DNA from: Corallococcus exiguus
GTDB lineage: Bacteria > Myxococcota > Myxococcia > Myxococcales > Myxococcaceae
Length of the DNA: 64,000 bases
Strand: one strand, 5' to 3'
NCBI RefSeq assembly: GCF_013248865.1
Contig: NZ_JABNNF010000018.1
Position numbers and translations under genes: made by a program. The notes under the pieces are model-generated. The model did no database searches, was not told the origin of the DNA, and saw nothing but the letters and a program-made list of their open reading frames with translations. Positions within the stretch are counted from its first letter, which is position 1. Each line of letters starts with the position of its first letter. Below are positions 41,435 to 64,000 of the stretch, in pieces.

Positions 41435-44400
41435 CTACCGGCGCGCCTTGCGAGCCGGCTTGCCCCGAGTGGTCTTCTTCGCCGCGGCCTTCTTCGCGGC
41501 GGTCTTCTTCCCCGCCGCCTTCTTCGCCGAAGCCTTCTTCGCAGGAGCCTTCTTCACCGCCGCCTTCTTCGCGGCCGTCTTCTTGCCCGCCGCCTTCTTC
41601 GCGGAAGCCTTCTTCGCAGGGGCCTTCTTCGCGGCGGACTTCTTCCCCGCCGCCTTCTTCGCGGAGGCCTTCTTCGCAGGGGCCTTCTTCACCGCCGCCT
41701 TCTTCGCGGCCGTCTTCTTGCCCGCCGCCTTCTTCGCGGAAGCCTTCTTCGCGGGGGCCTTCTTCGTCGGAGCCTTCTTCACCGGCTTCGCCGAACCCTC
41801 CGGCGCCTCGCGGGCGTCGCCGCCCTCCTTGGCCCGGTCGAACTCGCGCATCGCGTCGTCCACGAGGCCCATGCTCATGTACGCGACGCCCAGGTCGTGG
41901 TGGTCCGCCGGTGACAGCCCTTCCTTGGTGCCCTCGCGCAGCTTTTTGAGGGCCTCCTCCACCACCGGATCCGCAGCCTGGGGCGCCTGCGAAGCCTCTT
42001 CGGCTTCAATCTCGCCCTTCAGCTCCTGGCCCAGGTTCACCGCTTCGTCCTTCGGTTCCTGCGGCTCGGTGGCCACCTTCACCTGGGCGCTCTCGGGCGC
42101 GGGGGACTCGGACGCTTCAGGGGCTTCGGACTCGGTGCTGCCCGGCAACGGCGACGGCGTCTCGGACATGGGGGGCTCCGGGGCGATGCGCTGGAGGTGA
42201 TCCTGCAGCTTGACCGTGCGCTCCTGGAGCTCCGCCACCCGGGCCTTGTCCTTCTCCACCACGTCCGGCGGAGCACGGGCCACGAAGTTCGGGTTGTCCA
42301 GCTTGCGCTGCAAACCGGTGAGTTCCTGCTCGGAGCGGACGATCTCCTTCTTCAGGCGATCGCGCTCCGCGTCCAGGTCCACCAGGCCCGCCAGGGGCAC
42401 GTAGATTTCCAGGTTGCCGCTCACGAACGCCGCCGCCTGCGGAGGCTTGGCGCCCGGGGGGCCCACCACCACTTCGGACAGGCCCGCGAGAGGCATCAGG
42501 TACGCGCGCCAACGCTCCAACAGCTCGCGCGTCGTCGCGTCCGGGCTCTGCACCACCGCCTTCACCTTGGCGGACGGCGGCAGGTTGCTCTCACCGCGCA
42601 GCGTGCGCAGGCCCTCGATGGCCGCGATGACCGGCGCCATCTCGCCTTCCGCGGCCGCGTCCACCCACGCCGTCTCCGGCGCCGGGTAGGCCGCGATGCA
42701 GATGCTCTCCGTGGGCCGGGACATCGGCAGCTTCTGCCAGATCTCCTCGGTGATGAACGGCATGAACGGGTGCATCAGGCGCAGGATGCGGTCCAGGCAC
42801 GTCACCAGCACCGCGCGCGTGGTGTCCTTGGCCTCCGCGTCGTCGCCGTAGAGCGAGCCCTTCGCCAACTCGATGTACCAGTCGCAGAACTCCGCCCACA
42901 GGAACTGGTACAGCGTGGACGCGGCCTCCGCGAAGCCGAACGCCTCCAGCGACGCGCGCGTCTCCTCCGTGGCCTTCTGCAGGCGGGAGAGGATCCACCG
43001 GTCCGCCAGCGTCAGCTTGCGGCCCTCCAGCGGCGTCTTGTCCAGGCTGAAGTCGCCCATGTTCATCAGGGCGAAGCGGCTGGCGTTCCACAGCTTGTTG
43101 CAGAACGCCTTGTAGCCACCCAGGCGGTCCATCGACAGCTTGATGTCACGGCCCTGCTGCGTGAGCGACGCCAGCGTGAAGCGCAGCGCGTCCGCGCCGT
43201 GCGCGGGCATGCCCTGGGGGAAGCGGTTGCGCAGCGACGGCTGCAGCGACTCCGCCTTCGCGCCGAGGATGACGTCCAGGGGATCGATGACGTTCCCCTT
43301 CGTCTTGGACATCTTCTCGCCCTTCTCGTCGCGCACCATCGCGTGCAGGTACACGGTGCGGAAGGGCACGTCGTTCATGAAGTGCAGGCCCATCATCATC
43401 ATCCGGGCGACCCAGAAGAAGATGATGTCGTGGCCCGTCTCCATCACGGACGTCGGGTAGAAGGTCTGCAGGTCCGCCGTCTGCTTCGGCCAGCCCAGCG
43501 TGGAGAACGGCCACAGCGCGGACGAGAACCAGGTGTCCAGCACGTCCGGATCCTGCGTCAGCTCCTTGCCGCCGCACTTGGGGCAGGACTCCGGCGCCGT
43601 GCGCGACACGATGACGTCCGCCGTGTCCTTCGAGCGCTCTTCCGCCGGGGTGCACGCCGCGCAGTACCACGCGGGAATCTGGTGGCCCCACCACAGCTGG
43701 CGGCTCACGCACCAGTCGTGGATGTTGTTCATCCAGTGGAAGTACGTGTTCGTCCACGACTCGGGGACGAACTTCGTGCGGCCCTCCTCCACGGCCTGGA
43801 TGGCCGGCTTCGCCAGCGGTTCGATCTTGATGAACCACTGCGGCGACAGGCGCGGCTCCACCACCGTGGTGCAGCGCTGGCAGGTGCCCACGTTCAGCTT
43901 GTGCGGCTCCTCCTTCTCCAGCAGGCCCAGCTCCGTCAGGTCCGCCAGCACCTGCGTGCGCGCCTCCCGGCTCTCCAGGCCCGCGTACTTGCCGGTGTCC
44001 TTCGTCATCCGCGCCGCTTCGTCCAGGATGGACAGCATCGGCAGCTTGTGGCGCAGGCCCGTCTGGTAGTCGTTGAAATCGTGCGCGGGCGTGACCTTCA
44101 CCACGCCGGTGCCGAACTCCATGTTCACCAGCTCGCCGTCCGCGATGACCGGAATCTCACGGTCGGTGAGCGGCAGCGCCACGCTCTTGCCGATGAGGTC
44201 CTGGTAGCGCGGATCCTCCGGATGCACGGCGACGGCCGTGTCGCCCAGCAGCGTCTCCGGGCGCGTCGTCGCCACGGTGAGGAAGCGCTCCGTGCCCTTC
44301 ACCGGGTAGCGGATGTGCCAGAGCGAGCCGTTCTTCTCCTCGTGCTCCACTTCCAGGTCGGAGAGGGCCGTGCGGCAGGACGGGCACCAGTTGATCAGCT

Positions 44401-44929
44401 TCTGGGCCCGGTACATCAGGCCCTCTTCGTACAGCCGGACGAACACCTCGCGCACCGCGGCCGAGGACTGCTCGTCCATGGTGAAGCGCTCGCGGCTCCA
44501 GTCCAGGGAGGCGCCCAGGTAGCGGTGCTGCTCGCCGATGCGCGCGCCGAACTTGCCCTTCCACGTCCAGACGCGCTCGAGGAACGCCTCGCGGCCCAGG
44601 TCGTGGCGGCTCTTGCCCTCCGTCTTCTTGAGCTCCTTCTCCACCACCATCTGCGTGGCGATGCCCGCGTGGTCCGTGCCGGGCAGCCAGAGCGCGTTGA
44701 AGCCGCTCATCCGCTTCCAGCGCGTGAGGATGTCCTGGATGGTCGCGGTGAGCGCGTGGCCGATGTGCAGGCTGCCCGTCACGTTGGGCGGCGGCAGCAC
44801 GATGCTGAACGGCGGCTTGGAGGAAGGGGCTTCGGCGCGGAAGTAGTCGCGCTCCAGCCAGTGGTTGTACCACCGCGCCTCCACTTCGGAGGGCTCGTAG
44901 GCCTTGGACAGTTCAGTCGTGTCAGTCAT
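41435..44929 (-). CDS. valS: Valyl-tRNA synthetase with a ~260-aa C-terminal extension (acidic linker, TPR-like motif, Lys/Ala repeat tail)
   Basis: '[14 protein letters not shown]', '[12 protein letters not shown]', canonical coiled coil. Then '[32 protein letters not shown]...' for about 100 aa. Confidence 0.9.
41450..41795 (-). repeat. Tandem ~90-bp DNA repeats encoding the KAAKKA tail
   Basis: 'ccgccttcttcgc(g/c)ga(a/g)gccttcttcgcagg(a/g)gccttcttc' repeated. Confidence 0.6.
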
Positions 44930-44982: not shown

Positions 44983-46245
44983 TCAATGCTGGGTCTCGCG
45001 GTCCTTGATGAGCCGCTCCAGCTCTTCCCGGATGATGGCCTCCGCCAGCTGCGGTACGACCTCCCAGGCAATCTTCTCGATGACCTCGCGGGACGCCTTC
45101 GACAGCGCCTCGCGCAGCAGCGCCTCGCCGCCATCCGCGGCCGGACGGGCGCGCGCGGGAGGAGTCGCCGGCGAGGGGCCGCCGATATCCAGGGAGATCT
45201 CCTCCGCGCCGCTGGGCTCGGGCAGCGAGTCCTCGATGCGGATGCTCCCCGTGCGGGCCTGCGCGGCGGGCGGGGCGGCCGGTGCACCCAGCCCGAACGG
45301 ATCCCGGGCACGGGCGGCCGGAGGCACCGCGGCGGGCGGGGGCGCGGACGGCAGCGGCGCGGCGCCCGGAGGACGCGGGAAGCCGCCCGGGATGTTCGGG
45401 GCGCCAGGGCCCGGAGGACGCGCGGCCATGCCCGGAGGCGGCGCACCCGGAGGACGCGCGCCCGGAGGCACGGCACCCGGCGGAGGACGCGCCCCCGGCG
45501 GCATGGCACCCGGAGGCGGCGCACCCGGAGGACGCGCACCCATGCCCGGAGGCGGCGCACCCGGCGGAGGACGTGCACCCGGCGGCATGGCGCCCGGAGG
45601 CGGCGCACCCGGAGGACGCGCGCCCGGAGGAACAGCGCCAGGCAGCGGACGCGCCGCACCCGGAGGAGGAGGCACACCGGCGCCCGGAGGACGCGCGCCC
45701 GGAGGCACGGCACCCGGCGGAGGACGCGCACCCGGCGGCACGGCGCCCGGAGGCGGCGCACCCGCGGGACGCGCACCCGGCGGCACGGCGGCGGCGGGCG
45801 GCGCGCTGGCCGGAGCGCTCGGGGCGGAGGTCTGGGGCAGAATGCGCGTCGCGGCGGACGCGGGCATCGTGTTGGACTTCTGGCCCACCAGCGCCTTCAC
45901 CTTGTCGAGGAGGATCTGGCTCTCGAAGGGCTTGGCGATGTGGTCATCCGCCCGGGCGGCCTTCGCGCGGTTCTCGTCGAACGCCTCGAAGGTGCCGGCC
46001 AGGAGCAGCACCGGGATGGCCTGCGTGGAGGGGTCGCTCTTGAGCGCCTCGCAGACCTCGTAGCCGCTCTTGCCCGGCATCATCACGTCGGCGAGCACCA
46101 CGTCCGGACGCAGCTCGCGCGCGCGGGAGATGGCGTCCAGCCCGTTGTCCACCGCGGTCACCTGGAAGTCTTCCGTCGCGAAGATCATCCCGATCACCTT
46201 GCGGATGGTGAGCGAGTCGTCGGCGATCAGTAGATTCTTGGGCAT
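44983..46245 (-). CDS. romR: Response regulator with N-terminal receiver, long PPGARPPGA-type Pro-rich repeat region and an acidic C-terminal domain (RomR-like)
   Basis: 'NLLIADDSLTIRKVIGMIF...VVLADVMMPGKSGYEV', then about 25 'PPGARP' repeats, then 'EEISLDIGG...IEKIAWEVVPQLAE'. Assignment from memory of Myxococcus xanthus RomR architecture. Confidence 0.6.
   Translation of the reverse strand: MPKNLLIADDSLTIRKVIGMIFATEDFQVTAVDNGLDAISRARELRPDVVLADVMMPGKSGYEVCEALKSDPSTQAIPVLLLAGTFEAFDENRAKAARADDHIAKPFESQILLDKVKALVGQKSNTMPASAATRILPQTSAPSAPASAPPAAAVPPGARPAGAPPPGAVPPGARPPPGAVPPGARPPGAGVPPPPGAARPLPGAVPPGARPPGAPPPGAMPPGARPPPGAPPPGMGARPPGAPPPGAMPPGARPPPGAVPPGARPPGAPPPGMAARPPGPGAPNIPGGFPRPPGAAPLPSAPPPAAVPPAARARDPFGLGAPAAPPAAQARTGSIRIEDSLPEPSGAEEISLDIGGPSPATPPARARPAADGGEALLREALSKASREVIEKIAWEVVPQLAEAIIREELERLIKDRETQH
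45290..45790 (-). repeat. Imperfect tandem ~27-36-bp DNA repeats encoding the Pro-rich region
   Basis: 'ggcgcacccggaggacgcgc(a/g)cccggcgg' recurs. Confidence 0.6.
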
Positions 46246-46362: not shown

Positions 46363-47175
46363 TCAAGAAAACATGCGCTGCAGGTCCAGTAACATCACCG
46401 GATCCGGCAGCCCCGGCGCCCGGAACGTTCCGGGAAGCTCGGCCGGCTTGAACTTCTGCAGCACACCAAGCACCCGGGTGGCCGCCAGTCCCACGTTCCG
46501 CCCCGCCAGTTCCGTGAGGACGAACAGCTCCTCCGCCTGGGCCGGCGCACCCAGCAGCGCTGGAATCGAACAGATGGGCCACAGCGCCTGCGCGTGGGGA
46601 TAGACGCCCGCCACCGGCCCGCTCTGCACCGGGAGCACGCTGAACGCCTCGCCCCGGGGCACCACCTGGGAGACGCAACCCAGCGGAACGCCGAACAGCA
46701 CCCCCTGGGATTCCAGCACCAGTGCCCGCTCCGGGGGCACGTCCGCATAGTGCACGGGCCGGGGCTCCGGCGGGGTCGCCCGGGGGCCCGCCCGGTGCGG
46801 CAGCGCCTCCACGATGAGCTCCAGGTACAGCCGATCCTTGTGCAGCACCGCGCCCCGGCTCAGCGGCGCCAGCGAGTCCGCCAGGCCCGGAGGCAGCAGG
46901 AAGAACGGATCCCTCGCGACGTCCGCGACCTCCACCACGGCGCGCACCCGCACCGCGAGCGTGGGGCTGACGTCCAGGACCACCACCATGCCCGGCACTT
47001 CCTCAGGCAGGCCGCCGAGCAACGCGGCGAGGTCCTTCACTTCCAGTACGCCGCGCAGACTCGCGCCGCGAGCGCCCGGCATCGCGACCTCGATGACGGA
47101 GGTGGCCTCTACCGCGTAGCGCGTCTCTCCGGCCTCCACCAGCAGGCAGAGCCGCCGTCCGCTTTCAAAGGGCAC
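46363..47175 (-). CDS. Protein with two degenerate CheW-like domains
   Basis: 'RLCLLVEAGETRYAVEATSVIEV...MVVVLDVSPTLAVRVRAVVEV' and 'VLFGVPLGCVSQVV...FVLTELAGRNVGLAATRVLGV'. Confidence 0.45.
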   Translation of the reverse strand: MPFESGRRLCLLVEAGETRYAVEATSVIEVAMPGARGASLRGVLEVKDLAALLGGLPEEVPGMVVVLDVSPTLAVRVRAVVEVADVARDPFFLLPPGLADSLAPLSRGAVLHKDRLYLELIVEALPHRAGPRATPPEPRPVHYADVPPERALVLESQGVLFGVPLGCVSQVVPRGEAFSVLPVQSGPVAGVYPHAQALWPICSIPALLGAPAQAEELFVLTELAGRNVGLAATRVLGVLQKFKPAELPGTFRAPGLPDPVMLLDLQRMFS

Positions 47176-47228
47176 GGCCCGGGACCCTAGCAGCCTTCCA
47201 GTGTTGGGTGCTAAGCCCTGAAACAGTC

Positions 47229-48617
47229 ATGGCGCGACTGCTCCTCGTCGACGACGAAAAGATCGCCCGCAATCTCTACGGCGACTACCTCACGGCCGCA
47301 GGACACCTGGTCACGGCGGTGCCCACCGTGGCGGATGCGAAGGCCGCCCTCTCCGCGGCGCGGTTCGACGCGGTGGTGACGGACCTCATCCTCCCCGGCG
47401 GCGACGGCATGGAAGTGCTTCGCCACGTGCGCGAGCGCTACCCCGGCGTGGAGGTGCTGGTCATCACCGGCCTGGACAAGGTGGCCCCCGCGGTGCGCGC
47501 CATCAAGAGCGGCGCGGCGGAGTACCTGGTCAAGCCCGTGGCGCCGGAGGCCCTGGAACACGCGCTGCGCCGCGCGCTCACCACGCGCGACCTGATGCGT
47601 GAGAACGCGTCCCTGCGCCAGCACGTCGCGCTGCTGGAGGCGGGCCAGCGCATCGCCACCACGCTCGACCGCGAGCGGCTGTCCACGGCCGCGTCGGACG
47701 CGCTGGAGTCCATGGCCAACGCCTCCGCGGTGATGCTCCTGGAGCGGGACCCCGGCGGCACGGGCTTCCGCTCGCACGGCATGCGCGGGCTGCCGGTGGA
47801 CCTGCACGAGGCGCTCGTCCCGCTGCTCATCGAGCGGCTCTCGGGCTCGCGCACGCCGGTGGAGCTCGACGGACTTCAAGTTCCCTGGCCGCGCACCCTC
47901 TCCTTCCCCGCCGTGGACGGAGAACTGGTGCTGGGCCACGCGGTGCTCTTCCACGACAGCGCGCCCGCGGAGCACCACGCGGAGACCGTGGGCTTCCTCG
48001 TGCGCAACTGGGCGCTGGCCCTGCGCAACCTGGGCCGCTTCGCCGCCGTGGAGGACCTGGCCTACGTCGACGATCTCACCCGCCTGTTCAACACGCGCTA
48101 CCTGCACCTGGTGCTGGACCGCGAGGTGAACGAGGCCCTCCAGACGGAGCGCCCCTTCTCCCTGCTGTTCCTGGACCTGGACCGCTTCAAGGCCATCAAC
48201 GACACGCACGGGCACCTGGTGGGCTCGCGGGTGCTGGTGGAGGCCGCGCGCGTGCTCAAGGGCTGCGTGCGCGACCCGGACGTGGTGGCGCGCTTCGGCG
48301 GCGACGAGTACGTGGTGCTCCTGCGCGGCACGGACTCCGGCGGGGCCCTCAAGGTCGCCGAGCGCATCCGCCGCACCATGGAGACCCATCAGTTCCTGGG
48401 CCGCGAGGGGCTGGCGCTCAAGCTCACCACCTGCATCGGCGTGGCCAGCTTCCCGGAGCATGCCCAGGACAAGGACCACCTGCTGGACCTGTCCGACCGG
48501 GCCATGTACCGGGGCAAGCGTGGCACCCGGAACGTCGTCTACATGGCGGCGCAGGACCTGGAAGCCACCCCGGCCGAGCGCCGTCAGAATCCCCCGCCCC
48601 CGCAGGGCCAGGGCTGA
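47229..48617 (+). CDS. Response-regulator diguanylate cyclase (REC, GAF-like, GGDEF)
   Basis: Receiver 'LLLVDDEKIARNLY...VVTDLILPGGDG'. 'RFGGDEYVVLL', 'LTRLFNTRY'. Confidence 0.8.
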   Translation: MARLLLVDDEKIARNLYGDYLTAAGHLVTAVPTVADAKAALSAARFDAVVTDLILPGGDGMEVLRHVRERYPGVEVLVITGLDKVAPAVRAIKSGAAEYLVKPVAPEALEHALRRALTTRDLMRENASLRQHVALLEAGQRIATTLDRERLSTAASDALESMANASAVMLLERDPGGTGFRSHGMRGLPVDLHEALVPLLIERLSGSRTPVELDGLQVPWPRTLSFPAVDGELVLGHAVLFHDSAPAEHHAETVGFLVRNWALALRNLGRFAAVEDLAYVDDLTRLFNTRYLHLVLDREVNEALQTERPFSLLFLDLDRFKAINDTHGHLVGSRVLVEAARVLKGCVRDPDVVARFGGDEYVVLLRGTDSGGALKVAERIRRTMETHQFLGREGLALKLTTCIGVASFPEHAQDKDHLLDLSDRAMYRGKRGTRNVVYMAAQDLEATPAERRQNPPPPQGQG

Positions 48618-48632
48618 AAGCCGCACCGCGCG

Positions 48633-49022
48633 CTACTTGCGCAGGCTGCCCACGGTGAGGTGCTTGGGCAGCTCCACTTCCGCGGGCACGCCGCCGCCGC
48701 CCTCGCCCACCGCCTCCACCTCTTCGTGAGACGCGCCGGTGGTGATGAGGCGGTACTTCTGCGACGCCTCGCGGTCGTGCTGGGCCTGCTCCGGATCCAA
48801 CCGCGCGATGAGCTGCCAGAAGAGGGCCGCGTGCTCCCGCTCCTCGTCCATGACGTGCCGCAGGATGGCCTTCGCCTCCTCGTTGTCCGTCGCGTCCAGG
48901 TGCGCGGCGTAGAGGTTGATGGCGTCCAGCTCCGCCTCGATGTTGAGCCGGATGGAGCGGGCCAGTTCGGAGTCCGTCAGCTTCCGGGGCACCAGCGAGT
49001 GGAACGGGTTCGTCTGCGGCAT
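48633..49022 (-). CDS. Ferritin-like/rubrerythrin-like encapsulin cargo protein (EncC-like) with C-terminal targeting peptide
   Basis: 'LNIEAELDAINLYAAHL', 'RHVMDEEREHAALFWQL', C-terminal '...VPAEVELPKHLTVGSLRK'. About 129 aa. No shell gene in the window. Confidence 0.6.
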   Translation of the reverse strand: MPQTNPFHSLVPRKLTDSELARSIRLNIEAELDAINLYAAHLDATDNEEAKAILRHVMDEEREHAALFWQLIARLDPEQAQHDREASQKYRLITTGASHEEVEAVGEGGGGVPAEVELPKHLTVGSLRK

Positions 49023-49179
49023 GAAGACCTCAGCGACAGGGAGGGTTTCCAGCAAGCGAGCGGGCAGCAGCGTTTCCGTCAGGCCAGGCCGGAAGGCGTG
49101 CGCGAGCATCCGTTCGGTCGCGAGCGCGGTCAACCGAATCCCGCTGGGGGTGCGTTGCACGTGAACACCTGCCTCCGCC

Positions 49180-50709
49180 ATGCTCCCGCGCATGGAGACC
49201 CCCTCGGCGCTCGCGCAGCTTCTCCAGGCCCTGGACGCGGGGGACCTGGAGAAGGCACGGCTCGCGGCCGTGGCGCTGCAACGCGCCAACGCCCACACCC
49301 ATCAGGTCGCCGCGGAGGTCCTCCATGAGCTGCGTCAGCCCCTGCTGGGCGCGAAGGCCTACGCCCAGCTGCTGGCCGAGGAAGGAGGCTCCAGCGGCCC
49401 GCTGAAGCTGCTGCTCGCGCAGGTGGAGCGGATGGAGCAGATCGTCTCCGACTTCATCCGCCTGGCCAGCGAGCGGCCGGCCCCGCAGCAGCGGCTGTCC
49501 CTGGCCGCGCCCATCTGGGCGGCGGCGAAGGTGTTCAGCGTCAACCCGGACTCGGCGCGCATCTCCCTGGAGGTGGAGGCCCCCGAGGACCTCACCATCC
49601 AGGGCAACGCGCGGCTGATTGAGCAGCTCACGCTCAACCTGCTCAACAACGCCCGCGACGCCATGTCCGGCCGGGGCCGCGTGAAGGTGACGCTCACGCG
49701 CGATGGCGCCTCCGCGGCCCTCTACGTGTCCGACTGGGGACCGGGCATCCCGGACGAGCTGAAGACGCGCATCTTCGAACCCTACGTCTCCGCCAGCAAA
49801 CGCGGCACGGGCCTGGGGCTCGCCGTCTGTCGTCGCATCGCGCAGGAGCACCACGCGCAGATTGCCCTGGTGCCGCCCACGACGCTGCGCGAGGTGCCGC
49901 CCCCGGCCACTGTGTTCCGCGTGCTCTTCCCGCCCACGGACGCGCCGCGCCCGCCGCGCAAGCGCCTGCTGGTGGTGGACGACGAGGGCATCATCCGGAT
50001 GGTCTTCAAGGACCTGATGGACAAGGAGTGCGAGGTCATTGAAGCGGCCACGGGCGAGGCCGCGCTCGAAATCCTCCGCTCGTCGCGCGTGGACCTCATC
50101 GTCACGGACAAGAACCTGCCCGGCATCTCCGGCCTGGAGCTGGCCCAGCACGCGCGGAAGCTGGACCCCGCGTCGCGCGTCATCCTGATGACGGGCTACC
50201 CCTCGCTGGTGACGACGCAGCAGGCGCTGCAGCTGGGCGTGGTGGACTACCTGCTCAAGCCCTTCGACGACATCCGCCAGGTGCGCGCGCTGCTGCGGCA
50301 GGCGCTGTACACGCCGGCCGCGCCGCCTGTCCCCGCCCCCAGAGCTGGCGTGCGCCGGGTGGACGTGCTGGAGGACAACCCGGCCACCGCGCGGCTGATT
50401 TCAGAGGCGCTGACGCTGCTGGGCCTGGAGGCGCGCGTCGTCGCGGGCGCGGAGGTGGCCACCATGGAGCCACCCGTGGGCGTGGTGGTGTCGTGGGACT
50501 TCGCGCCGGCCTACGGCAAGAAGGCGCTGGAGCTGGCCCGGGCCCTGAGCCAGGGCGCGCCCTTCGTCGTCCTGGCCGAGCACCTCACCATGGACACGGC
50601 GCTGGCGTCGCTGCGCGCCGGGGCCGCCGCGTGCCTGCCCAAGCTGCTCTCCGACACCTCCGCGCTCAGCCGAGAGCTGGGCCTGGCCTTCAAGAAGACC
50701 GCTTCCTGA
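49180..50709 (+). CDS. Hybrid sensor histidine kinase (HisKA-HATPase, receiver, receiver-like)
   Basis: H-box 'LHELRQPLLGAKAYAQLL'. 'VSDWGPGIPDEL', 'GTGLGLAVCRRI'. Receiver 'LLVVDDEGIIRM...LIVTDKNLPGISG'. Confidence 0.8.
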   Translation: MLPRMETPSALAQLLQALDAGDLEKARLAAVALQRANAHTHQVAAEVLHELRQPLLGAKAYAQLLAEEGGSSGPLKLLLAQVERMEQIVSDFIRLASERPAPQQRLSLAAPIWAAAKVFSVNPDSARISLEVEAPEDLTIQGNARLIEQLTLNLLNNARDAMSGRGRVKVTLTRDGASAALYVSDWGPGIPDELKTRIFEPYVSASKRGTGLGLAVCRRIAQEHHAQIALVPPTTLREVPPPATVFRVLFPPTDAPRPPRKRLLVVDDEGIIRMVFKDLMDKECEVIEAATGEAALEILRSSRVDLIVTDKNLPGISGLELAQHARKLDPASRVILMTGYPSLVTTQQALQLGVVDYLLKPFDDIRQVRALLRQALYTPAAPPVPAPRAGVRRVDVLEDNPATARLISEALTLLGLEARVVAGAEVATMEPPVGVVVSWDFAPAYGKKALELARALSQGAPFVVLAEHLTMDTALASLRAGAAACLPKLLSDTSALSRELGLAFKKTAS

Positions 50710-50794: not shown

Positions 50795-52486
<1,692 letters not shown>

Positions 52487-58007: not shown

Positions 58008-58050
58008 CGGTGGTTGACGGACTGGGGCGGAGCGGCGGTAATCGGAAGCG

Positions 58051-58148
58051 GTAGGGCCTCCGGACCTGGTGGCCGGCCCGGTCTTCAAAACCGGTGAGGG
58101 GCGCCGAAAGGCGTCCCTGGCGAGTTCGATTCCCGTGCCCTACCGCCA
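58051..58148 (+). tRNA. selC: tRNA, probably tRNA-Sec (anticodon UCA), 98 nt with long variable arm
   Basis: 8-bp acceptor 'ggtagggc/gccctacc'. Anticodon arm 'ccggt-cTTCAaa-accgg'. Extra arm 'aggggcgcc-gaaa-ggcgtccct'. T-loop 'gTTCGATTc'. 3' CCA encoded. Confidence 0.55.
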
Positions 58149-58323
58149 CCTTCCAGTCCTTGACCTACCCGCGGCCCGCTCTGGACTTTCCAGAACGGGC
58201 CGTGGTGCTTCGACGTCATGTCATGGCTCAACAGGAGCAGTCATGGAGCAGCTGTAGCCATGGCTGGTCATGGGGAGTGGGTGGGAACGGCGCGTTGAAG
58301 ACAGCCGGCGTTGAATGCTGGCG

Positions 58324-60132
58324 TCATCCCTCCGCGTGGCGTAATCCCTTCGCGCCCTCCTGCACGCATGCTCGGTTCACGAAGACGCGGAATCCCCCGC
58401 GTGCGCCCTCCGGCAACTCCGCGCTCAAGTCCAAGGCCTGCAGCGCGATGTCCCGCTCCATTTGCACGAGCCGGGGGTCTTCACGCTCCTCCGGGCCGAA
58501 GACGAAGGCGCAGTACTCGCCGGACGCGATGCTCGCCACGAGCGTCTCCGGCCGGAGCTCCGTGTAGAAGGACTGCCAGTAGCGACCATTGCGAAACAGG
58601 TAGAGCTGAAGAACCTTGTACCGGGGCGAGATGAAGCTCTCATGCCCGGGCGGCAGTGGTTCCAAATAGGGGCGAAGGATCTCCGCGATCTCCTTGTACG
58701 GTGGTTGAGGCGCAGTGAGCTCGTACGCCCCGAAACCAGCCAGTGACAGCGCGGAGAGGCCACCGATGAGCGCCGTCGCTCGCGCGCGCTCGAGGCGAGC
58801 CGCCGCATACGCCAGGAGCCAGGCGCCCCCCACCCCGAGCGCGTGCGCGCCAACATAGACAAGCGTGATGTCATCGCGCTTCAGCCCCCGAGCATGAGCC
58901 GCCCCGATGAGGAGCACTGCCGCGACCGAGAAGAAGCCCGCTACCCTGAGGGCTCGACGGGCCGGTGCCCCCCGTGGATTGAGGATGCCCTCCCTGTCAA
59001 AGAGCGCCGAAGCACCAAGCCCGGCCAGGCCATAGAGGAATGGCAAGACGCCCAGGATGTAGAGCGACTCCTTGATGGCGGGGAGCGAGAGGGGAACCAG
59101 GCTTGCGAGCCCGAAGCCGATGGCGCCGAAGAGCCCGGCCGCGGTCGGCGCACGCCGCTTCAAGGCGGGGAGCGCAGCCAGAAGGAGGGGGCAGAGGAAG
59201 AAATGCTCCCGATAGAGGATCGCCGGGTAGTACCAGAAGGGATGACTCCATTCCGTGGGCACGCCCGCCCCAGCCAGCTTCGACCCTCCGATGCTCTGCC
59301 CCAGGAAGGGTGCGAAGTAGACCTGGGTGAGCCAGAGGGCGACATCCGTGGGTGACCGCAGAGCAACGAAGGCGAGGTGGAGGGACGCCGTGGCAAGAAA
59401 GCCGACGGTGATGCAGGCGACAGGAACCAGCGCCAATTGACGCCGCTGGAGACGCACGATGGCAAGGAGCCCTAGCGAAGCCAGCACGAAGGGGGTGACG
59501 AGCCACAGCTTCGTCAAGAAGCCAAGGCCGAGGCATGCGCCACCCAGCAGGGAGTGCCAATTCCTCCCGGTGAGCTCTCCTCGCGCAATCCAGTACGTGC
59601 CCGCCATGCCCCAGGCCACGAGGACAGGCTCGGCCTCCATCAGCCGGAATTGCCACAGGACGGTAGGAGAGAGCGCGAGCAGGAGCGTCGTCAGGAGCGC
59701 CGCACGACGCTCCCACAGGGCGACGAGCCGGTAGGTGAAGCAGAGGGTGGCGGCCAGCGCCGCGAATGAGACGAGCCCCATGGCTTCGGGCCGGCCGCCC
59801 AGGGGACAGCCTCCGAGTGCGAGGAGCACCGAGTGAAATGGAGTGTTGCCGATGCCTGGCAGATCGAAGCCAACCCAATCCTCCGAGCCGCCAGGGATGT
59901 ACGAGGGCCGCACCACGAGCGCCAGCGAACGGCACATGTTGAGGGCCATCGTGCCATTGACGCCCTCGTCACCTGCTTCGATACGCTTGAAGACGACGCC
60001 GCGCGCGAAGGCCAGGGCAAGGGAGGCAATGACCACCACACGGACGACGAAGCGCAGGCGATTGTCGTCATCACGCCGCGGCCCAAGCGGCTGGACGGGG
60101 GGAAACCACGAGCCTGGCCAGAGAAGTCTCAT
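58324..60132 (-). CDS. GT39/ArnT-PMT-like integral-membrane glycosyltransferase with C-terminal soluble domain
   Basis: Many TM helices. N-terminal loop 'EAGDEGVNG'. Pattern resembles PMT_2 family. Start at 'MRLLWPG' is inferred. Confidence 0.55.
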   Translation of the reverse strand: MRLLWPGSWFPPVQPLGPRRDDDNRLRFVVRVVVIASLALAFARGVVFKRIEAGDEGVNGTMALNMCRSLALVVRPSYIPGGSEDWVGFDLPGIGNTPFHSVLLALGGCPLGGRPEAMGLVSFAALAATLCFTYRLVALWERRAALLTTLLLALSPTVLWQFRLMEAEPVLVAWGMAGTYWIARGELTGRNWHSLLGGACLGLGFLTKLWLVTPFVLASLGLLAIVRLQRRQLALVPVACITVGFLATASLHLAFVALRSPTDVALWLTQVYFAPFLGQSIGGSKLAGAGVPTEWSHPFWYYPAILYREHFFLCPLLLAALPALKRRAPTAAGLFGAIGFGLASLVPLSLPAIKESLYILGVLPFLYGLAGLGASALFDREGILNPRGAPARRALRVAGFFSVAAVLLIGAAHARGLKRDDITLVYVGAHALGVGGAWLLAYAAARLERARATALIGGLSALSLAGFGAYELTAPQPPYKEIAEILRPYLEPLPPGHESFISPRYKVLQLYLFRNGRYWQSFYTELRPETLVASIASGEYCAFVFGPEEREDPRLVQMERDIALQALDLSAELPEGARGGFRVFVNRACVQEGAKGLRHAEG

Positions 60133-60476
60133 TTCCGCCAGGCCCGGGGCAGGTGGGCACGAGAGTGGAGCCAGTCCTTGCACCCCCCTACCCTCGCGGT
60201 CGGACTGAGCTGCGCCTTCAGAATCCTGCCGAGCAGCCTCAGCGTCCGCAGCAGCGGCTCCTTCGACTTGTCCTGGTGCGTCTTCTGAGCGGGCGTGCGC
60301 TTCCGGGTCGCGTCAACCGGCTCCTCCAGGCCCACGTAGGCGCACGCGAAGCGCTCCGGTGCGAGGAACTCGCCCAGCCACCGTCGCTCCTCGCGCGGAA
60401 ACCAGGCGGCGAAGAGGACCCGCATCTTCACGGGCTCCCTCGCTCCATCCTTGAAGGGACCCATGAAAGAAGGCAC
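60129..60476 (-). CDS. Hypothetical protein immediately upstream of and abutting the GT39 gene
   Basis: ORF only. Its stop abuts the GT39 start. Confidence 0.3.
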   Translation of the reverse strand: MPSFMGPFKDGAREPVKMRVLFAAWFPREERRWLGEFLAPERFACAYVGLEEPVDATRKRTPAQKTHQDKSKEPLLRTLRLLGRILKAQLSPTARVGGCKDWLHSRAHLPRAWRK

Positions 60477-60759
60477 GAGCCTGACCGAGCAATTGCCGTT
60501 CCAGCCAGCGGCAGCTCAATCCGGGCCTTCGAGTCCTGCTCGTCCGTTTCGGGGACGGCCCCTCATTTCGACCCTGGACAGCCGAGACGGGCGGCCCTCT
60601 TGAGGGAGCGAGCCATCCTCGATGGACTCTCAATCCGAGACAGCCTGACGTCCCAGCATGAGACAGCAGGGACAATCAGCCGGCGGTGAGGCCGTGAAGC
60701 ATGGAGCACGATACCTGCATGGAGGCACAGGCAGCAGGAAGCACGTGGGACACATGTGA

Positions 60760-61950
60760 ATGCGCAAGCCGGTGATTCGCAAGACACTCTCCGAGGAACT
60801 GTTCTTCGTCCGCGGCATGAGCCTGATGCTCGTGGTGCTGGTCCATGTGATCGGCGTGGAGCCCTTCCAGGGGGTGCGCAAGCTCTTCTCCCCGGAGCGA
60901 GCGGAGCTCCGGTTCGCCTCGGAGTTCATCCACAGCTTCAACATGGCGGTGATGATCATTGGTTCGGGCGTGGCGGTGTCACTCTTCGGCGCGCCGGACA
61001 GGTCCTTCCGGGAGTTCGCGCACAAGAAGCTGCGCAAGCTCGTCGTCCCGATGTTGGTGTGGGCGCCCGTCTTCCTCTTTACCCATGAGTTCACCCAGGC
61101 GCGCCCGCGAACACCTGGCGGATGGCTGGCGCTGCTGGGCCGGTTCCCTGCCGCCTGGTTCCCTCCGTACGCCATCTTCTGGTTCATTCACGCCCTGGTG
61201 GGCTGTACCTGTCTGGCGTGGGTGTATCAGCGCATCGTGCCCGCCCGGTACAATTGGAACGGACTGAGCTACCTGGCACTGTCCTGGGTGTCGTATGCCG
61301 CTGTCGAGTTCCTGGAATCTCCGATGTCTGACATTGGGATGAGATATCTCCGCTTCATCCTCTTCTGGAACTGCCTCTTCGGTCTGGGAATGAGCCTGTC
61401 CCCCTGGCTGGCGCTGGCGCGCACCCGGCTGTCTCAGTTGCCTCTGGCGCTCCAGGGACTGGTGCCCTCGGGGTTCCTGGGGCTGCTGGTCTCTTTCCAT
61501 GTCTCGGGGCGCGCGGAGGGGCATCTGGATCCGCGCCTGATCACGGGGCCGCTGGGCTTCTGCCTGCAATTCACCCTGGCCTTCTTCCTCCTGGGTGTTG
61601 CCCGGAGCCTGGGTGCGACGTGGAAGGGGTTGGCGAGCTGGATTGTCTACCTGGGCTCGATCAGCATGCCGCTCTACCTCTTCCACATCTATTTCGTGTC
61701 CGGGGTGAGACTGGCTTTGGAGAAGGTGCTGCCAGGAGCGCCGCTCACGCTGCACCTGGCGCTGGGCGTGTTCGGAGGGCTGATGGGGCCCCTGGGCCTC
61801 TATCTCCTCCTGGAGAGGAATCGGGCCTTCCGCTGGAGCATCGGCCTGCGTGGTGTCCCTTTGGACACGCCCGAACTCGGCGCGGATGAGTCCCCTGGCA
61901 CCCGGCCACTTCGGGTGGAGGCATCGACCATGAAAGGGGCCGACGTATGA
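60760..61950 (+). CDS. Acyltransferase-3 family membrane O-acyltransferase
   Basis: 'FFVRGMSLMLVVLVHVIG' and about 10 TM helices. Confidence 0.65.
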   Translation: MRKPVIRKTLSEELFFVRGMSLMLVVLVHVIGVEPFQGVRKLFSPERAELRFASEFIHSFNMAVMIIGSGVAVSLFGAPDRSFREFAHKKLRKLVVPMLVWAPVFLFTHEFTQARPRTPGGWLALLGRFPAAWFPPYAIFWFIHALVGCTCLAWVYQRIVPARYNWNGLSYLALSWVSYAAVEFLESPMSDIGMRYLRFILFWNCLFGLGMSLSPWLALARTRLSQLPLALQGLVPSGFLGLLVSFHVSGRAEGHLDPRLITGPLGFCLQFTLAFFLLGVARSLGATWKGLASWIVYLGSISMPLYLFHIYFVSGVRLALEKVLPGAPLTLHLALGVFGGLMGPLGLYLLLERNRAFRWSIGLRGVPLDTPELGADESPGTRPLRVEASTMKGADV

Positions 61951-62073
61951 ACCCAAATGAAGTGTTGACCAGTCGCCAAAATGTTTGTGTTTCAGAGCGG
62001 GATGGCCATGCTGGCTGGCTACACCAAAGTTCATGGAGGCCCCCTCTGAGCGCCTCCATTCCCTGGAGTTGTC

Positions 62074-64000
62074 ATGGACGTGATGAGAGCCAGCAGGGTC
62101 CTGCTGCTGGGACTGGTCTTTGTCGCAGCAGGCTGTAGCAGCAAGCCACCGGAAGAGAAGACGCTGGCCCACAGCGCTTCGCCGTTGGTGGTGGAAGGGT
62201 GGACTGAGACCGCGCCCATGGCGGAGGCTCGCAAATACCACGCCGGCGTAGCACTGCCTTCAGGCAAGGTGCTGGTGACGGGTGGCTACAACGCCAGCGG
62301 GTATCTGTCCTCCTCCACGCTCTTCGACCCCGCGACTGGCACGTGGACAGCAGCCGCCTCCATGCCGGAGCCCCGGCAGATCCACACCGCGGCGCTGCTG
62401 CCTTCGGGAAAGGTGCTCGTGGTTGGCGGAGAGAACGCGACGGGCCGCCTGGCTTCCGCGGTGGTGTATTCCCCGGACACCAATACCTGGGCCTCCGCTG
62501 GGAGCTTTGCCTCGGGCGTGGCACGGGCTTCCCTGACGGCGACGCTGTTGCCTTCGGGCAAGGTGCTGGTGGCGGGCGGTGGCAACTCCGGCGGCCCCAA
62601 GTTCAATGTGGATGTGTATGAGCCAGTGGCGGGAACCTGGAGCGTGGGTCCGAATCTGGGAGCGGCGCGGCGCGACCATACGGCGACGCTGCTGACGACC
62701 GGGCAGGTGCTGGTGGCGGGCGGCGTCGGGGGCGCGAGCCTGGCGACGGCGGAAGTGTATGACTCGACGAGCAATACCTGGACGGCGACGGGAGGGCTGG
62801 CGACGGCGCGCTACAACCACACGGCGACGCGGCTGCCCTCGGGCAAGGTGCTGGTGGTGGGTGGCCGCAACAGCACCGGGCTGCTGGCGACAGCGGAGGA
62901 ATACGACCCGGGCACCGGGCAGTGGAGCGCGACGGGCGCGCTGGGCACGGCCAGGGAGCTGCACTCGGCAACCCTGCTGAGCACCGGCAAGGTGCTGGTG
63001 ACTGGAGGCATGTATGGCAGTGCGGCGACGGCCGCGCTGGCGAGCTCGGAGGTGTACGACCCGGCCACCCGGCAGTGGAGCGCGGCGACGCCGATGGCCG
63101 GTGCGCGGTATTCGCATGTGGCGGTGTCGCTGGCGACGCAGGCCAAGGTGTTGGTGGTGGGCGGTATTGGCGCCACCGGCGCGAGCCTGAAGACGGCGGA
63201 GGTGTACGGGTACGACGCATGTGCTGGGGTGACTTGCAACAGCGCGCCAGGGGCCTGCTACGAGGCGGCGGGAACGTGCAGCAATGGGGTGTGCAGCTAC
63301 GCGCTGAAGGCAGCTGGGGCTTCCTGCGATGACGGGGATGCGTGCACCGGGACGGACGTATGCAACGGCGCGGGCGTGTGCGCGGGAAGCGCCACCCAGT
63401 GCGGCAGTCCTCCGGGGCAGTGCTACGCGGCGGCGGGGGCGTGCAGCGACGGGACGTGCTCCTATTCGTACAAGGAAGCCGGTGCCGCGTGTGATGACGG
63501 GGATGCGTGCACGGTGGATGAGACGTGCAACGGAGCGGGCGGGTGCGCGGGCACTCCGGTGACTTGCAGCAGCCCTCCGAGCCAGTGCTTCGAGGCAGCG
63601 GGAACGTGCAGCGAGGGCGCGTGCACCTATGCGCCGAAGGCCACAGGCACGGCTTGCGATGACGGCAATGGCGGCACCATCAACGATGTGTGCAGCGGAG
63701 CGGGCGTCTGCGCGGGCGTGCCAGCCTGCACGACGCCGCCGGATGCCTGCCACGGCTCACCGGGCACCTACTCCAACGGAGCGTGCACCTATCCGCCGAA
63801 GGCCGCAGGCACCCTCTGTGATGATGGCAACGCTTGCACGACGGGCGACGTCTGCAACGGTGCTGGCACCTGTGGCGGCTCGGCGCTGAGCTGCAACAGT
63901 CCTCCCAGCCAGTGCTACCAGTCCGCCGGCACCTGCTCCAACGGCACCTGCAGCTACGTGCCGAAGGCCTCGGGCGCCAGCTGCGATGACAGCAACGCGT
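62074..64000 (+). CDS. Lipoprotein with Kelch-type beta-propeller and C-terminal ~45-aa Cys-rich repeats (3' end outside the window)
   Basis: 'VFVAAGCSS'. 6x 'LPSGKVLVxGG...TAEVYDP'. Then repeated 'CxxPPxQCxxAxGTCSxGxCSYxxKAxGxxCDDG(D/N)ACT'. Absent from the ORF track because there is no stop in the window. Confidence 0.7.
   Translation, partial: MDVMRASRVLLLGLVFVAAGCSSKPPEEKTLAHSASPLVVEGWTETAPMAEARKYHAGVALPSGKVLVTGGYNASGYLSSSTLFDPATGTWTAAASMPEPRQIHTAALLPSGKVLVVGGENATGRLASAVVYSPDTNTWASAGSFASGVARASLTATLLPSGKVLVAGGGNSGGPKFNVDVYEPVAGTWSVGPNLGAARRDHTATLLTTGQVLVAGGVGGASLATAEVYDSTSNTWTATGGLATARYNHTATRLPSGKVLVVGGRNSTGLLATAEEYDPGTGQWSATGALGTARELHSATLLSTGKVLVTGGMYGSAATAALASSEVYDPATRQWSAATPMAGARYSHVAVSLATQAKVLVVGGIGATGASLKTAEVYGYDACAGVTCNSAPGACYEAAGTCSNGVCSYALKAAGASCDDGDACTGTDVCNGAGVCAGSATQCGSPPGQCYAAAGACSDGTCSYSYKEAGAACDDGDACTVDETCNGAGGCAGTPVTCSSPPSQCFEAAGTCSEGACTYAPKATGTACDDGNGGTINDVCSGAGVCAGVPACTTPPDACHGSPGTYSNGACTYPPKAAGTLCDDGNACTTGDVCNGAGTCGGSALSCNSPPSQCYQSAGTCSNGTCSYVPKASGASCDDSNA

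Follow-up and report, generated by a model that had tools for sequence, protein, structure and literature searches.

A very probable distal encapsulin cargo gene, encC, in a Corallococcus exiguus-type myxobacterium

How should a small ferritin-like gene be understood when its product ends in what looks like a cargo-loading peptide and no compartment shell is encoded beside it? The question is raised by a 64-kb stretch of Corallococcus DNA (64,000 nucleotides, analysed at full length and hereafter called the window), in which the preliminary description noticed a product of about 129 residues with a ferritin-like EEREHA motif and, seeing no shell gene nearby, spoke of an orphan encapsulin cargo. 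The EncA/B/C/D encapsulin of Myxococcus xanthus serves as a model system, for which both crystal and cryo-EM structures exist. Our answer, held with high confidence, is that the gene is encC, which encodes the distal ferritin-like cargo of a family-1 encapsulin iron-storage compartment in a C. exiguus-type myxobacterium. The EncC system itself is already known, and the window gene is a close orthologue of a structurally characterised protein. The features discussed below are collected in Table 1.

Table 1. Position of encC, of its parts and signals, and of other features in the window
Feature	Position	Strand	Remark
encC CDS	48633..49022	-	129 codons + stop; encapsulin ferritin-like cargo protein (very probable)
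Ferritin-like helical domain (residues 17-94)	48741..48974	-	AlphaFold2 helices, Foldseek, orthologue alignment
Flexible linker (residues 95-120, Gly/Ala/Glu-rich)	48663..48740	-	least conserved part of the orthologue alignment; low pLDDT
C-terminal targeting (cargo-loading) peptide HLTVGSLRK (residues 121-129)	48636..48662	-	conserved in the orthologue alignment; matches published peptide
Putative Shine-Dalgarno-like GAGG	49028..49031	-	5 nt upstream of encC ATG; read from sequence
Candidate promoter TTGACC-N17-GATGCT	49105..49133	-	82 nt upstream of encC ATG
GroEL	50795..52438	-	
Hybrid histidine kinase with receiver domain	49180..50709	+	
Receiver-GGDEF protein (RR-GGDEF)	47208..48617	+	
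CheW-like protein	46363..47175	-	
RomR-like protein	44983..46245	-	receiver domain 77.5 bits, Pro-rich region, acidic tail
Valyl-tRNA synthetase (ValRS)	41435..44929	-	1164 aa
Lys/Ala-rich C-terminal tail of ValRS	~41435..41830	-	AKKAxAKK repeats
NadC			beside ValRS, past the RomR-like gene
Major vault protein (MVP) homologue	36865..39141	-	758 aa
HmuY-like protein	35781..36779	-	PF14064 53.5 bits
tRNA-Sec	58050..58148	+	Rfam 70.1 bits; ARAGORN anticodon TCA

The encC gene and the family of its product

The gene lies on the minus strand with its ATG at 49022 and its stop codon at 48633..48635, and its 129-aa product (MPQTNPFHSLVPRKLTDSELARSIRLNIEAELDAINLYAAHLDATDNEEAKAILRHVMDEEREHAALFWQLIARLDPEQAQHDREASQKYRLITTGASHEEVEAVGEGGGGVPAEVELPKHLTVGSLRK) has the size that had been described, with the EEREHA motif at residues 60-65. 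The longest mechanical open reading frame reaches an upstream GTG at 49298 (221 aa), a reading that was rejected on the evidence of an alignment of 30 EncC orthologues from Corallococcus, Myxococcus, Pyxidicoccus, Stigmatella, Hyalangium, Archangium, Vitiosangium and Aggregicoccus. All 30 begin with MPQTNPFHS, and because of this common start and the GAGG placed 5 nt before the ATG, position 49022 is taken as the true start of encC. Further upstream, the element TTGACC-N17-GATGCT is a plausible encC promoter and is common to three genera; its counterpart (TTGACC...GGATGCT) also precedes encC in Myxococcus hansupus (locus L095) and Archangium violaceum (locus L094). A scan with strict sigma-70 consensus around encC called no promoter, this element included, the intrinsic-terminator scan of the same surroundings found nothing, and Rfam gave no RNA element near encC. 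At its other end encC converges on the RR-GGDEF gene, with 15 bp between the two stop codons.

Profile searches assign the product to the encapsulated ferritin-like cargo proteins. EncC scores 36.6 bits against Pfam PF22277 EncFtn-like (cut-off 27) and 111.9 bits against NCBIfam NF058679 EncB_fam (cut-off 90), a model described as [quoted passage not shown] that is matched over positions 1-117 of its 117. It remains below the cut-off of the EncB-specific NCBIfam model (28.3 bits vs 210) and of TIGR04535, the classical ferrit_encaps model (77.8 vs 125), and its matches to Pfam COQ7 and Rubrerythrin are weaker and partial. The best match among solved structures is PDB 7S8T, M. xanthus EncC, over the full length (E = 1.8e-64), with 106 of 129 residues identical (~82%, counted from the alignment). 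Residue for residue the same protein is annotated in Corallococcus exiguus and in Corallococcus sp. AB004. Judged from these sequence comparisons, the window gene is encC, the orthologue of M. xanthus EncC, and the consistency with the distal-cargo system of M. xanthus that had been suggested for it is borne out.

The public names of this protein point elsewhere. RefSeq and UniRef mostly call it "demethoxyubiquinone hydroxylase family protein" and JGI "rubrerythrin", while "ferritin" also occurs; we judge these names misleading because of the match to the EncB_fam model and the solved EncC structure. Taken literally, the name that many orthologues carry would make the window protein a COQ7-type demethoxyubiquinone hydroxylase, and Pfam COQ7 does score 25.5 bits, just over its cut-off of 23.5. 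That match, however, spans only profile positions 2-59 of 169, which is one helix pair of the four-helix di-iron domain, and the NCBIfam COQ7 equivalog NF033656 is matched at 14.2 bits against a cut-off of 180. A protein of 129 aa with ~80 ordered residues also argues against COQ7, as does the 82%-identical full-length crystal structure, which is a decameric EncFtn-type ferroxidase (PMC11126975). A hydroxylase of this kind is thus extremely improbable, and we keep to the assignment as EncC.

The fold agrees with this assignment. An AlphaFold2 model of EncC, built on the orthologue alignment, has a mean pLDDT of 80.9, with helices predicted at residues 17-44, 48-75 and 77-94 at pLDDT 86-98. When this model was submitted to Foldseek, the best five matches were all chains of 7S8T (E = 3.5e-7 to 4.8e-6, 86-87% identical), and the encapsulated ferritins of Pyrococcus and Rhodospirillum ranked after them. 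The helical domain is highly conserved among the 30 orthologues, every one of which has the ferroxidase-centre residues E31, Y38, E61 and H64; the sequence DEEREHA at residues 59-65 contains the EXXH motif. Since the alignment with Rhodospirillum rubrum EncFtn is ungapped with an offset of +1 (query 26-85 = chain 27-86), these four residues correspond to E32, Y39, E62 and H65 of the R. rubrum protein, in which E32, E62 and H65 are ferroxidase-centre ligands by mutagenesis and Y39 is a conserved tyrosine beside them (PMC11202242).

Linker, targeting peptide and related cargo proteins

The C-terminus of EncC reads ...PAEVELPKHLTVGSLRK, also given as ...GGGGVPAEVELPKHLTVGSLRK, and the resemblance to a cargo-loading peptide that had been seen in it proves to be close. 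The tail matches the published targeting peptide of M. xanthus EncC, PEKRLTVGSLRR (PMC10402063; PMC11202242 Table 2), as well as the EncC targeting-peptide consensus RLTVGS(N)L(M) (PMC11202242, Table 2). Alignment of the tail, the check originally proposed, finds it conserved in the 30 orthologues: T123, V124, G125 and R128 never vary, conservation reaches at least 90% at K120 and L122, and the pattern across orthologues is LTVG[SN][LMF]R[RKP]. Translated in all six frames, the 64-kb window contains the motif L[TS][VI]G[SNGT][LMF][RK] a single time, namely at the EncC C-terminus. Just before it, the Gly/Ala/Glu-rich residues 104-119 vary in sequence and length among the same 30 proteins, and residues 109-129, with pLDDT below 50 in the AlphaFold2 model, are predicted to be disordered. 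An enzyme domain and a terminal peptide that are both conserved, with a drifting linker between them, read as the standard signature of an encapsulin cargo.

The last residue of EncC is Lys in the window, Arg in M. xanthus and Pro in some Myxococcus orthologues. Given Lys for Arg, the terminal salt bridge of the peptide may differ from that of M. xanthus; EncD is without that terminal Arg, yet it loads (PMC11126975). Apart from this residue, M. xanthus EncC (MXAN_4464, UniProt Q1D3Y8, PDB 7S8T) is very much the same protein: it has 130 aa against 129 in the window, and shares the fold, the ferroxidase residues, the LTVGSLR peptide and a location distal to encA-encB. The two also differ in their linkers (GEGGGGVPAEVELPKH in the window vs GKEGAAPSPADVTPEKR in M. 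xanthus) and in host genus, Corallococcus in the case of the window.

The operon-encoded paralogue EncB (M. xanthus MXAN_3557, PDB 7S5C; also in Corallococcus) likewise combines an EncFtn-type two-helix ferroxidase domain with a linker and an L-T-[VI]-G-S-L-R-R peptide, and it too is a cargo of the EncA shell (PMC11126975). It is ~31-43% identical to window EncC over ~55-100 aligned residues (most 55-70) and, unlike EncC, is encoded directly upstream of encA, is longer and has a Pro-rich linker. The EncB peptide precedes a Gly/Ser tail, whereas that of EncC is the end of the protein; in Corallococcus EncB we read PLTIGSLRR followed by the tail GGGSGGSSGGR, so that the peptide is not at the very C-terminus (L081:4449-4937, L029:5456-5944). 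More distant are the classical encapsulated ferritins of R. rubrum (Rru_A0973) and Haliangium ochraceum (Hoch_3836; PDB 5DA5 / 5N5F), which share with EncC the half-ferritin fold, an E/E/H ferroxidase centre at the dimer interface and a C-terminal targeting peptide (PMC11202242), but are ~30% identical to it, have genes adjoining that of a T=1 shell, and carry a peptide of the SLGIGSLK type.

The shell gene and the encC neighbourhood

The remark that no shell gene lies near encC holds for the entire 64-kb window, in which tblastn with M. xanthus EncA (a query 100% identical to 4PT2) found neither a family-1 shell gene nor a pseudogene, the best hit being noise (E = 0.27). Linocin_M18 or capsid-type Pfam domains were likewise absent among genes within +/-10 kb in six near-identical conspecific loci. 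A scan for EncA over one genome per species returned 73 loci in Myxococcaceae and Archangiaceae, at least ten Corallococcus species among them; none of the hits was titled C. exiguus, and the EncA of that species was reached by exact-sequence look-up. Directly upstream of encA, an encB-type gene (31-43% identical to EncC) was detected by tblastn in 19/73 loci at E <= 0.01, and an encC-type gene was found by tblastn within 6 kb of encA in 0/73. Corallococcus encB fell under the tblastn threshold but is present, as a gene for 162 aa, in locus L029 and in the gene tables of L080-L089.

Among the proteins that cluster with EncA at 90% is P0256 (PF04454) of C. exiguus, and its locus is ordered as an EncFtn-like encB (162 aa), encA and a gene for a sigma-54-type activator. 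A sigma-54-dependent activator gene stands downstream of encA in all loci tabulated. Because of this gene after encA, a sigma-54 -24/-12 promoter was sought upstream of encC and of encB, with no convincing match at either. EncA P0256 and an EncC identical to that of the window occur together in three assemblies (GCA_006376655.1, GCA_003986945.1 and GCA_009909105.1), so that the search for encA elsewhere in the genome, which the preliminary description had called for, has a positive outcome. On contig JAAAPK010000002.1 encC occupies 370,822-371,211 and encA 914,956-915,828, the two being ~544 kb apart. The term "orphan" is therefore right in that the shell gene is distal and wrong if it is taken to mean shell-less, since a cognate encA is encoded elsewhere in the same genomes and the cargo gene is merely distal to it. 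C. exiguus EncA is identical to M. xanthus EncA at 272 of 287 positions (95%) and retains D39, D214 and Y217, the reported binding partners of the targeting peptide's Arg residues (PMC11126975). Over 18-20 kb, the window DNA agrees with the six C. exiguus-type loci at ~98% identity. This agreement and the records of the identical EncC place the window in C. exiguus or a species very close to it. As the identity falls short of 100%, we infer that the strain behind the window has encA from other genomes of the species in which the identical EncC is encoded.

A gap of ~0.5 Mb between encC and the shell operon, a promoter region of its own and a terminal K in place of R are also what one might expect of a free cytosolic ferritin- or rubrerythrin-like protein whose tail is vestigial and has no encapsulation role in Corallococcus. 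We consider such a protein very unlikely, given that the tail is under clear purifying selection in the orthologue alignment while the adjacent linker drifts, that the cognate shell exists with its peptide-contact residues intact, and that in M. xanthus the same distal layout gives the most abundant native cargo (PMC10402063). The reading of the window gene as a distal encapsulin cargo is supported.

Gene order tells how old this separation may be. Around encC the window has GroEL, the hybrid kinase, encC, RR-GGDEF, CheW-like, RomR-like, ValRS and NadC, and the RomR-like and GroEL genes that were expected nearby by comparison with Myxococcus are both in place. From GroEL to ValRS the order is the same in M. 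hansupus and Archangium violaceum, and the related M. hansupus locus flanks encC with the same hybrid kinase, RR-GGDEF, CheW-like, RomR-like and GroEL genes. Given this conservation across the three genera, we take the distal position of encC to be ancestral and not the result of a recent transposition. In two families encC thus keeps its place between a hybrid kinase and an RR-diguanylate cyclase, near RomR and a GroEL paralogue, and from this fixed position one could speculate that the flanking kinase / RR-GGDEF module governs how much of the main cargo is supplied, separately from the shell operon, where a sigma-54-type activator is encoded directly after encA. We put this idea forward as an unlikely one; if true, such separate regulation would adjust the stoichiometry of the cargo and the capacity for iron storage during development.

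The RomR-like protein has ~200 residues of degenerate PPGA(R/V)PPGA repeats after its receiver domain, followed by the acidic C-terminal tail. ValRS ends in a long Lys/Ala-rich, histone H1-like tail (Pfam HC2), and its length varies by genus, being 1355 aa in M. hansupus. On the far side of the window, similarity to the six conspecific loci ends exactly at the 3' end of tRNA-Sec, and 58149..64000 holds strain-specific genes: in the window the tRNA is followed by genes for a PMT-like glycosyltransferase and an acyltransferase_3, in other strains by GmrSD_N or DUF2381 genes. The tRNA-Sec gene looks like the boundary of a strain-variable island.

A homologue of the major vault protein is encoded ~9.5 kb from encC, with strong Pfam matches (MVP_shoulder at 152 bits, together with Vault, Vault_2, Vault_3 and Vault_4); bacterial MVP homologues, myxobacterial ones included, have been discussed (bioRxiv 10.1101/872010). 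Most C. exiguus strain loci have this MVP gene, but in locus L005 oxidoreductase genes take its place. Directly downstream of it in the window lies the gene for the HmuY-like protein, of the haem-binding lipoprotein family, which has a Thr/Asp/Ala/Gly-rich repeat linker. Proximity to the MVP gene might suggest that EncC serves as cargo of a compartment other than the encapsulin, but LTVGSLR-type peptides have no known link to vaults and the EncC peptide fits the EncA-binding consensus exactly. Moreover, the MVP gene is missing at the matching position in L005 and from the encC neighbourhoods of Archangium and M. hansupus, in all of which encC stays; on the same grounds the MVP homologue was rejected as the missing shell. 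Such a role carries almost no weight with us, and a second gene for a shell-forming protein close to the encapsulin cargo gene is most likely a coincidence.

A proposed role of EncC and what the locus means

For EncC as an encapsulin cargo, orthology with the M. xanthus protein provides the mechanism. M. xanthus EncC is the main native cargo, at ~52% of the load; it assembles into decamers that contain ferroxidase centres, and the EncA-bound state of its targeting peptide has been visualised (PMC11126975, PMC10402063, PMC11202242). By extension from this work, decamer formation, ferroxidase activity and encapsulation would apply to Corallococcus EncC too. Its helical domain would pair into antiparallel dimers, each with a di-iron ferroxidase centre to which both chains would contribute E31, E61 and H64, close to Y38, and a decameric ring would consist of five such dimers. 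During assembly of the shell the peptide LTVGSLRK, at the end of the disordered linker, would dock into an inner-face pocket of EncA, which is encoded with EncB ~0.5 Mb from encC. The hydrophobic L, V and L of the peptide would fit into EncA pockets, and D39, D214 and Y217 would bond with its Arg and with the basic residue at its end. Once in the lumen of the T=3 shell, EncC would oxidise the Fe2+ that enters through pores, and the resulting Fe3+ would mineralise there. Iron mineralised in the lumen would be kept from Fenton chemistry, which would protect the cell against oxidative stress.

As a discovery the locus has little value, being a close orthologue, from a sister genus, of a component of the M. 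xanthus EncA/B/C/D iron-storage encapsulin. Its practical value is one of annotation, as the current public names hide a distal encapsulin cargo; the case also demonstrates that cargo genes far from the shell operon, overlooked by operon-based searches, can be picked up by scanning for the targeting-peptide motif. For the myxobacteria themselves, a synteny that is the same in Myxococcaceae and Archangiaceae indicates that the distal arrangement of encC is old and stable.
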